Under the pieces are notes generated by a model. The model had not been told where the DNA came from. It saw only the letters and a list, made by a program, of their open reading frames with translations, and made no database searches. The position numbers were made by a program, and so were the translations under genes. This document shows, one piece after another, positions 61,684 through 61,876 of a stretch of DNA of 64,000 nucleotides; position 1 is the first letter of the stretch; each line of letters opens with the position of its first letter. This stretch comes from a bacterium. Its GTDB lineage: Bacteria > Patescibacteriota > Minisyncoccia > Minisyncoccales > CG1-02-41-26. The stretch is from NCBI GenBank assembly GCA_030648255.1, contig JAUSHZ010000007.1:24404-88403 (forward strand), written 5' to 3'.

Positions 61684-61876
61684 ACAAAAAATGGAGCATT
61701 AAGCTCCGTTATTAAAATCGAACACTAGTTGTTTTATACCACAGATGTGGAAAAAATGCAACCCCGTAGTAGAATTTCATCTGCCCCTTGGGCAAAAATA
61801 ATGATGAAATTCACTACAAGGCTAACCCCAAAAGCGTAGCCACTTGTGCCGATCGGCACGGATGACTACACTTTTA
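61684..61876 (-). repeat. Distant relative of the intercistronic element (between the ZIP gene stop and the receiver gene start)
   Basis: mRNA sense: TAG, then stem GUAGUCA..UGGCUAC around GUGCCGAUCGGCAC, then CCUUGUAGUGAAUUUCAUC../..GAUGAAAUUCUACUACGGGG. It shares AGTAGAATTT / AAATTCACT with the M-A hairpin. Ends in hairpin ggagc..gctcc + U-run. Confidence 0.5.

Follow-up and report, generated by a model that had tools for sequence, protein, structure and literature searches.

The spacer between the genes for a ZIP-family metal transporter and a single-domain response-regulator receiver protein, at positions 61684–61876 on the minus strand of a 64 kb stretch of DNA from a patescibacterial contig (the window), is best read as a normal regulatory spacer of independent parts, one of which is a copy of a dispersed hairpin repeat resembling repetitive extragenic palindromic (REP) sequences. 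We put the probability of this reading at about 0.7. The parts are a GC-rich stem-loop (H1), a long hairpin (H2), a promoter, a short leader hairpin followed by a U-run, and a Shine-Dalgarno (SD) site (Table 1). An earlier reading of the sequence alone had listed the stop TAG, the GC-rich stem, the long hairpin, the terminator-like hairpin and the SD site; all are present, on the minus strand (it quoted the plus-strand complements of the words that H2 shares with other hairpins). It had also taken the region for a reduced and divergent relative of large modular elements found elsewhere in the window, and it is here that our analysis departs from it. The whole spacer folds far better than shuffled sequences (z -6.1, 0 of 200), and what distinguishes an otherwise ordinary locus is its member of a REP-like hairpin family that seems not to have been described.

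The modular elements, seventeen in number and 130–265 nt long, fill stop-to-start gaps, mostly between ribosomal protein genes, and are all on the minus strand. They are built from E, M and S modules whose types are combined differently between copies, and all 16 CTAACATG sites of the window are at element copies. Sixteen of the seventeen end in CTAAC directly before ATG, the remaining one ends CTAAT-ATG, and none has an SD site.

H2 is related to the M-A hairpin module of these elements beyond chance, as the sequence-only reading had proposed. The shared words on which that proposal rested are real and above expected counts: AAATTCTACT is present five times in the window (four times in M-A modules and once in H2) where 0.27 are expected, AGTGAATTT ten times where 1.76 are expected, and outside the element copies both co-occur only in H2. 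Plain local alignment (Smith-Waterman, 17 element copies against the spacer) gives marginal matches on the H2 arms only, each of them short, and because it is too weak alone we used covariance models, whose E-values are rough. The first (R1) was built from M-A copies alone (five from the window and three metagenomic, with H2 excluded) and was searched with filters off. Its best match outside the element copies in the window is at 61757–61826 on the minus strand (24.3 bits, E = 1.4e-4; the M-A modules score 72–83 bits), and for the M module the module-level search named earlier as a refuting test thus leaves the kinship standing. The second (R2), built from 18 short solo hairpins of foreign genomes, ranks H2 first in the window (42.7 bits, E = 5e-9) with the five M-A modules next (30.8–40.7 bits). 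Across the 64 kb it gives E<0.01 only for these six hairpins, including their opposite-strand readings, the best of which is H2 on the plus strand (23.6 bits, E = 7e-4).

These hairpins belong to a family of the form CCCCGUAGUGAAUUU...AAAUUCUACUAC(N)GGGG that is present on dozens of Patescibacteria contigs. In its fuller form the basal stem is CCCCGUAGUGAAUUU/AAAUUC-U-ACUAC(N)GGGG, and the distal stem is variable and covarying. A search with the pattern AGTGAATTT N4-34 AAATTYTACT N2-5 GGGG matched 16 loci in a one-genome-per-species collection of bacteria and archaea and 49 loci of metagenome contigs; viral contigs gave no match. Some 47 of the 57 unique matches are clean hairpins of the type (U/A)G-CCCC-GUAGUGAAUUU-[variable stem-loop]-AAAUUCUACUAC-(N)-GGGG. 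The source records are Patescibacteria labelled Paceibacterota, Saccharibacteria, Staskawiczbacteria or unclassified, and two matches, with M-A-type arms, are from Bacteroidota. The invariance of the search words within the family is by construction; we conclude that the family is real because features outside the pattern confirm it, namely the C-rich foot (in 47 of 57 unique matches) and Watson-Crick pairing of the first unsearched distal position (in 52 of 57: CG 21, UA 14, GC 13 and AU 4).

A long form of the family has a covarying P2 of 3–6 bp, a U-rich internal loop of 6–10 nt on the 5′ side and a GC-rich apical hairpin. When 15 long forms including H2 are aligned, 98.6% of the cells are paired, with compensatory changes in seven pairs; no shuffle (0 of 500) reaches this, and slid controls are at most 53% paired. 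Diverged copies found by R2 also retain pairing through double changes (GAACUUU/AAAGUUC and GAGUUUU/AAAACUC). Family hairpins are 35–70 nt long and solitary, without regular arrays, and their density is six copies in the window and about one per 20–30 kb in relatives. Their orientation is not fixed, with the upstream gene on the same strand in 19 cases and on the opposite strand in 19, and the downstream gene in 25 and 12 respectively. The neighbourhoods are also dispersed: the 76 flanking open reading frames (ORFs) match 117 Pfam families of unrelated housekeeping genes, and no recurrent neighbour, such as a transposase or nuclease, was found among them. A role as terminator for the family as a whole was considered and rejected, as most copies are without U-tracts and many are antisense.

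H2 is a typical solo long form of this family, and M-A is a variant of the same family. H2 has the basal stem of the family (CCCC-GUAGUGAAUUU / AAAUUC-U-ACUAC-(N)-GGGG), with the one-nucleotide bulge in the 3′ arm (AAAUUC[U]ACUAC), and above it come P2 (CAUC/GAUG), a U-rich internal loop (9 nt, 5′ side) and GCCC-AAG-GGGC as the apical hairpin; the P2 columns of the alignment contain UA/CG/GC and AU/GC/CG. The fold is strong (-33 kcal/mol) and GC-footed, and in the R2 alignment the foot CCUU forms two G-U pairs, as in the L002 copy. The same architecture is seen in the folds of L015, L017, L026, L035, L046, L054, L061 and L002c. M-A hairpins differ from the H2 type by two extra base pairs (a 2-bp insertion) in the stem. 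H2 is not a degenerate copy of the element, and the direction of descent is probably the reverse of that implied by calling it a divergent relative of the element, because H2 fits the solo-hairpin consensus better than M-A does (42.7 versus 30.8–40.7 bits) and has the solo long-form architecture that is missing from composite M-A.

The other element modules are not found in the spacer. A hidden Markov model (HMM) of the E module finds all 17 element copies (E = 1e-12 to 7e-3) and has no match in 61600–61950 even at E≤100, and the S modules, used as 17 queries, have no match in the spacer. Where an S module would end in CTAAC-ATG there is instead a conserved promoter, a leader and the SD sequence GAGGGA. 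For E and S, then, the module-level search contradicts the earlier claim, and 61684–61876 is not a reduced or intermediate element copy.

We compared seven further orthologous ZIP-to-receiver junctions (L001, L002, L003, L005, L010, L011 and L013). H1, in which an A-tract and a U-tract (UUUU in the window) flank a stem whose outer part covaries and whose apex UCCGUGCCGAUCGGC is invariant in character, recurs in three of the seven (L001, L005 and L011); the apex UCCGUGCCGAUCG is kept and the outer stems differ (GUAGUCA/UGGCUAC, GUAUCAA/UUGAUAC and GAUGCAA/UUGCAUC). L005, which lacks H2, has no hairpin other than the H1 orthologue, after which comes UUUUU. The E-module HMM and Smith-Waterman alignment both give no match between H1 and E modules; the GC-rich stem is an independently conserved feature and not, as had been proposed, part of an element. 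H1 is most likely an intrinsic, bidirectional-type terminator of the ZIP gene. A simple terminator scan lists the leader hairpin and neither H1 nor H2. Hairpins of the H1 type (GAUGCAA-N-GUGCCGAUCGC-N-UUGCAUC) are present three times within 700 nt of L011 (5840–5890, ~6390–6476), and the CGAUCG-centred hairpin, which is single-copy in the window, thus forms a small repeat family of its own.

The pattern TTGC.T....T.TGTG.TA..AAA...AG is invariant in all eight junctions, including those without H1 or H2; more precisely, each has TTGC(A/T)T, 17 nt, TGTG(G/C)-TA(T/A)(A/C)AA, and YAG seven bases on. This is a promoter of the sigma-70 type, with an extended -10 box, and a structured leader comes after it; the spacing and the conserved YAG would place the transcription start near 61726. 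A hairpin and T-run are at the same place in all eight junctions, with stem sequences that differ between the genomes. Because this terminator-like hairpin is downstream of the conserved promoter, it is within the receiver's own transcript and does not form the end of an element. The U-run of the leader (61686–61726, minus strand) is able to pair with the SD site in several of the eight genomes, and the leader hairpin may be an attenuator or a translational control element. The SD site had been described as normal; GAGGGA is indeed there, and orthologues carry GGAGG at the same position, but it is unusual for this genome, as a pattern scan finds SD-like motifs before only four of 75 ORF starts in the window (five when GAGGGA, missed by the scan's 4–10-nt spacing rule, is counted). 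We note that many first genes in the window have a -10-like box 5–9 nt before ATG.

H2 is insertion-polymorphic at the ZIP-receiver junction. The window has it and L011 a degenerate copy (R2 21 bits); it is absent from L005, L010 and L002, the last two of which have neither H1 nor H2. The promoter is intact in the relatives lacking H2, which is thus not needed for it. In L001 and L003 there are short, unrelated CC..GGGG hairpins in H2's place that R2 does not detect, and we claim no family membership for them. GGGGTT(A)GC is found on both sides of H2 as against a single GGAGTTGC at the empty L005 site; however, no consistent target-site duplication was found at the L002 copy or at other loci, and the suggestion of a duplication was dropped. 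The L002 copy is a long form in the FtsX-to-DedA junction, with the CCUUGUAG foot as in H2, directly after the FtsX stop and antisense to both genes. At the same junction L003 has a 4-nt spacer, and different, unrelated perfect palindromes are situated exactly between the FtsX stop and the DedA start in L001 (11962–12014) and L010 (~2594–2665). Hairpin insertion at junctions seems to be general in this lineage. A gene pair of the toxin-antitoxin type (Gp49-like/HTH, with Pfam names taken from the identical locus L004) is at 59906–60614 on the plus strand between FtsX and DedA, and is absent there in L001–L003.

Several other explanations were considered. One is that the whole spacer is a degenerate or intermediate E-M-S copy, in which H1 is a decayed E module, H2 is M-A, and the last hairpin is a decayed S module with an SD site. 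The parts follow one another as in an element (stop, then GC-rich stem, M-type hairpin, a further hairpin and start) and are co-oriented with the genes, H2 does match the M-A model, and elements do occur at non-ribosomal junctions. However, there is no E or S signal at E≤100, and Smith-Waterman matches are confined to the arms of H2; L001, L005 and L011 all retain H1, L005 without H2; a conserved promoter separates H2 from the last hairpin; H2 has the solo architecture not seen in composites; and true copies always end in CTAAC (once CTAAT) directly before ATG. This explanation is already largely refuted and we regard it as very improbable. Chance resemblance between two AT-rich hairpins is refuted already: single-arm local alignments are marginal relative to shuffles and, once there is a hairpin, the first word partly dictates the second, but the R1 match at E = 1.4e-4, the bulge at the same position in H2 and M-A, and the dozens of foreign hairpins sharing arms, foot and bulge, of which H2 is a typical long form, leave it virtually no likelihood. 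It is also improbable that H2 evolved in place as a ZIP terminator and that its likeness to the family is convergent, the site selecting a GC-footed hairpin before the T-rich -35 box and spacer. The short CC..GGGG hairpins of L001 and L003 are at the exact position, adjoining TTGC and the T-run, and the tail UUGCAUUUUUU is U-rich, as such an origin would have it; however, hairpins of unrelated genomes have arms identical to those of H2 base for base, as well as its bulge and long-form layout, a sister copy with the CCUUGUAG foot is at another L002 junction, and L005, L010 and L002 manage without H2.

The alternative with most in its favour, although still an unlikely one, is that the H2 family is a functional cis-acting signal in RNA or single-stranded DNA, recognised by a Patescibacteria factor dedicated to it (for instance a recombinase or a protein of RNA processing or stability) and selected at its site rather than selfish or neutral. 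Across diverse Patescibacteria records the basal stem and bulge keep their sequence and the distal stem covaries, the long-form architecture is conserved, copies are found in rRNA-operon spacers, by tRNAs and at ribosomal protein junctions, and several directly adjoin -10 boxes or start codons. But the orientation to neighbouring genes is unfixed, orthologous sites can do without a copy, the flanking ORFs revealed no co-occurring gene, and no Rfam family matches. Several observations weigh against the reading of H2 as one copy of a dispersed repeat in an otherwise normal spacer. Part of the R2 score of H2 is built in, as the foreign hairpins were fetched by words common to H2 and M-A. The short GC-footed hairpins of L001 and L003 mean that the H2 site may simply select any hairpin. 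The simple terminator scan does not list H2, whose U-tract is interrupted (UUGCAUUUUUU), and since U-rich tails are confined to some of the members elsewhere, acting as a terminator is not something that the family has in common. Among the 76 flanking ORFs we found neither a transposase nor any other gene that might mobilise the repeat, and conservation of the basal stem and bulge across distant lineages, possibly including the two Bacteroidota, suggests a recognition factor over neutrality.

If the spacer is composed of independent parts, as we prefer, H1 would terminate ZIP transcription through its A-tract, stem and U-tract, and the receiver gene would be transcribed from its own promoter, which abuts the G-rich foot of H2, to give an mRNA with a leader of roughly 55 nt containing the small hairpin and U-run, the SD site and the start codon. 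The effect of H2 is most likely incidental or auxiliary: a strong second hairpin followed by UUGCAUUUUUU, which overlaps the -35 box and spacer directly after the G-rich foot, might back up termination. Alternatively, H2 might protect the 3′ end of the ZIP mRNA and insulate the receiver promoter. The annotation of the locus is thereby corrected to a terminator, a repeat hairpin and a promoter with leader, and no relic of a large element.

Table 1. Features of the spacer, its flanking genes and the composite elements of the window
Feature	Position	Strand	Details
ZIP-family metal transporter gene	61877–62641	-	Pfam Zip, E = 5e-42; stop TAG at 61877–61879
H1	61830–61875	-	AAAAGUGUAGUCA-UCC-GUGCCGAUCGGCAC-AAG-UGGCUACGCUUUU; read from sequence; fold -27.6 kcal/mol
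H2	61762–61822	-	GCCUUGUAGUGAAUUUCAUC...GAUGAAAUUCUACUACGGGG; read from sequence and fold
Receiver promoter (sigma-70-type)	61733–61761	-	Pattern match; -35 TTGCAT 61756–61761; 17-nt spacer; extended -10 TGG-TATAAA 61733–61741
Leader hairpin and U-run	61686–61707	-	GGAGCUUAAUGCUCC; terminator-like in simple scan; inside predicted receiver 5′ untranslated region
SD site and start codons	61676–61681 (GAGGGA); 61672–61674 and 61666–61668 (ATG)	-	Read from sequence
Response-regulator receiver gene (single domain)	61294–61674	-	Pfam Response_reg, 29.7 bits, E = 8e-7
Composite element copies	1278–1489, 1982–2136, 2524–2762, 2866–3100, 4739–4866, 12222–19776 (ten junctions), 22642–22850, 27551–27814	-	
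M-A hairpin module (example)	17090–17139	-	Other M-A: 1395–1444, 2646–2698, 2988–3037, 15919–15968
Inverted M-A-like hairpins	1334–1382, 2583–2631, 2925–2973, 15857–15905, 17028–17076		R1 on opposite strand
Copy 5	4739–4866	-	E module 4795–4848; S module 4739–4794, ending CTAAC-ATG

All of the genes around the spacer are on the minus strand, in the order adenylate kinase-like (ADK), ZIP transporter and receiver-domain protein. The window is from a Pacebacteria-like bacterium: homologues of the ZIP protein at 78–84% identity are named ZIP transporter of Candidatus Pacebacteria. The gene call in the sequence collection has a shorter start, and an exact look-up of the full-length protein gave no match. 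The Response_reg score of the receiver is below the cut-off of 30.2 bits, and its orthologues are flagged Response_reg. The 344-nt ADK-to-ZIP spacer upstream of ZIP (62642–62985) is likewise strongly structured (z -5.9), and contains a hairpin of ~120 nt at 62655–62773 (minus strand) with a foot of the same type (CCCCGU...ACUGGGG), after which UUGACA stands only 7 nt upstream of the ATG of ZIP.

Copy 5 is a different case, and here the sequence-only reading was right that the element consists of E and S modules only and links alaS to the gene for a 459-aa protein. It is situated between the genes for AlaRS (582 aa) and the 459-aa GlxA-barrel protein; its E module is found by nhmmer (E = 4e-10, match 4795–4845), its S module is 89% identical to 12216–12278 and ends TTTCTAAC|ATG, and neither R1 nor R2 finds an M hairpin in it. 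Part of a promoter-like TTGCAG-16-(TGTGG)TAGAAT (4851–4878) is contained in the 18 nt that separate the alaS stop from its E module. The same junction has a full E+M+M′+S element of 286 nt in GCA_028718785 (L085) and no element in L083 and L086 (24 and 26 nt). Copy 5 is a genuine reduced form, and because its S module is of a type different from that of L085, module exchange is indicated over simple deletion. The empty junctions (L083 3565–3588 and L086 5975–6000) have a TATAAT box 7–8 nt before ATG, a geometry of leaderless type; in the window (4739–4878) and L085 (5715–6000) the element is exactly between a TGTGG-TA(G/A)AAT box and ATG, and the entire 5′ leader would consist of it. Precise insertion of elements immediately before start codons is thereby suggested.

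Elements are also present or absent at other non-ribosomal junctions of the relatives, where they too end in CTAAC-ATG. One example is ABC_tran-to-FtsX, with a full element in L001 only (186 nt versus 0–4 nt elsewhere), and another is porA-to-porG, with one in L002 only (192 nt, as compared with 5 nt for L001 and ~30 nt for L003). Together with FtsX-to-DedA and alaS-to-GlxA these junctions bear out the proposal that the family can spread to other co-directional junctions, and gain and loss there is well supported.

Other features of the elements were noted. In the M-A-type elements R1 also matches the second hairpin (CCCCAGUUAAGUAGC...GCACUUAACGGGG), on the plus strand and with 28.7–33.3 bits; in each of five elements there are thus two family hairpins in inverted orientation, in the manner of a REPIN doublet. 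In the copy at 14060–14262 (minus strand) E pairs with S (GGCGAUUAGCC with GGCUAAUCGCC), and the fold of minimum energy is one long rod (-76.8 kcal/mol, z -9) that places the stop codon beside the start codon; 16954–17181 and others fold module by module. The copy at 27551–27814 (minus strand) has an insertion of ~90 nt inside the M hairpin between AAGAUUUGAGG and CCUCAAAUCUUAC. Downstream of secY (10758–10926, minus strand) there is an imperfect palindrome of ~170 nt, GCUUAUUUAUUUUUCUUUGC...GCAAAGAAAAACAAACAAGC, whose GC-rich centre with GUGCCCGAUCGCC is reminiscent of the H1 apex, and a further hairpin, GAAAUCCGAUUUUUAGGGAGCCCAAAAUCGGGUUUU, resembles the L001 FtsX-to-DedA palindrome. M-B modules share the foot and AAAUUUCUACU with the hairpin family, which does no more than suggest membership, and R2 does not detect them in the window at E≤1.

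Some members of the family have unusual settings. Copies are found between 23S and 5S rRNA genes, between a tRNA gene and 16S rRNA, and 15 nt after a tRNA gene (L041 1242–1286, L047 1923–1967, L051 2990–3034 and L038 832–876), in each case antisense to the RNA gene. In several candidate phyla radiation (CPR) contigs (L018 5766–5781, L066 1076–1091, L034/L037, L060, L063/L070 and L023) a TATAAT-like box is directly 3′ of the G-rich foot with ATG 6–9 nt after it, and sometimes the loop provides a TTG.. box 17 nt upstream; the 3′ half of the hairpin may thus be part of leaderless-gene promoters. A looser pattern matched three IMG/VR viral contigs, two of them apparently GC-rich variants, and with so few we do not call the repeat phage-borne. 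The variants (L081 10466–10501 and L082 1343–1372) retain CCCCGUAGUG...CUACUACUGGGG, with a GC-rich distal stem replacing AAUUU, and their sequences suggest that the foot and GUAGUG/CUACUAC form the conserved core.

Rfam 15 gives only chance-level miRNA and sRNA matches in 61550–62000 at E≤10, and none at the hairpins of 20 further loci. With gathering thresholds the window contains one tRNA, with a second found by ARAGORN, and a DUF3800-V RNA at 48983–49080 on the plus strand (41.9 bits versus a gathering threshold of 37.4), opposite to most genes there. No account of repeats like these in CPR bacteria came up in full-text literature searches, in which the words of the family sequence retrieved only unrelated primers.

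CPR genomes are usually described as streamlined and repeat-poor. Here there is a short structured repeat common to many CPR/Patescibacteria lineages, absent from Rfam 15 and the searchable literature, which is also a building block of large modular elements gained and lost at junctions of close relatives. The more striking biology is in these parent composite elements, which end exactly at start codons and are insertion-polymorphic. It is conceivable, although we consider it doubtful, that the GUAGUG hairpin is the recognition module of a mobile 'junction cassette' system specific to Patescibacteria, which together with E and S hairpins would insert exactly before start codons (between stop and ATG, or between the -10 box and ATG of a leaderless gene) and be processed at CUAAC|AUG to yield leaderless mRNAs; the same machinery would have left solo copies of the H2 type as by-products, or would bind them independently. 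Leaderless mRNAs would then be released in an organism that hardly uses SD sites. An insertion-polymorphic hairpin family and its mosaics would provide a marker of strain-level evolution, and a way into transcription and translation punctuation in organisms not yet grown alone.

Known systems resemble the family to different degrees. Two comparisons, with integron attC sites and with the Cas12a repeat (AAUUUCUACU), were dropped, as the R′/R″ cores do not fit and the order of the hairpin is reversed. Intrinsic (Rho-independent) terminators share with H1 the A-tract, GC-rich stem and UUUU, with H2 the GC foot followed by UUGCAUUUUUU, and with both the position just after a stop codon. They differ in that their sequence is not conserved between unrelated genes or genomes. 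Many family members have no U-tract or are antisense to both neighbours. TIGR arrays (TIGR-Tas) and CRISPR repeats, RNA-guide arrays that are common in CPR bacteria, also consist of repeated short hairpin-forming units in CPR genomes. TIGR arrays have two alternating 8–12-nt repeats and 9-nt spacers in tandem 36-nt units by a Tas (Nop-domain) gene (PMC12045711). Both systems were rejected on architecture, as the family hairpins are solitary, 35–70 nt long, and without regular arrays or an associated gene.

BOX and RUP of Streptococcus pneumoniae, Correia/NEMIS of Neisseria, and ERIC/IRU elements are closer, being modular (boxA-B-C-like), transcribed with their neighbours and highly structured, inserting at junctions and able to supply or disturb promoters and terminators. 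Here, however, there is no sequence similarity to them and no terminal inverted repeats with demonstrable target-site duplication. The closest analogue, alongside BOX and Correia-type elements, would be the mosaic palindromic repeats of the REP/BIME/REPIN type in Enterobacteria and Pseudomonas. The family differs from these in its unrelated sequence and patescibacterial host, in possessing a long form of its own, in which a U-rich internal loop is combined with a GC apical hairpin, and in composites that end exactly at the start codon (CTAAC-ATG), which is not known as a property of REP or BIME; no RAYT or Y1/HUH transposase gene was found among the 76 ORFs flanking the hairpins. REPs are plausible mRNA 3′-end stabilisers or terminators, and the family stem contains GTAG/CTAC, the tetranucleotide typical of REP heads, which may serve as a lead. 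In the remaining respects the family appears to behave like REP/BIME-type repeats: the units are imperfect palindromes of small size in which the stem sequence and a bulge or mismatch are conserved; they are found outside genes, next to genes of many kinds, in both orientations, and occur singly, as inverted pairs or in mosaics (here M-A followed by an inverted M-A-like hairpin, with E, M and S modules shuffled between copies); and they are present or absent at orthologous sites.

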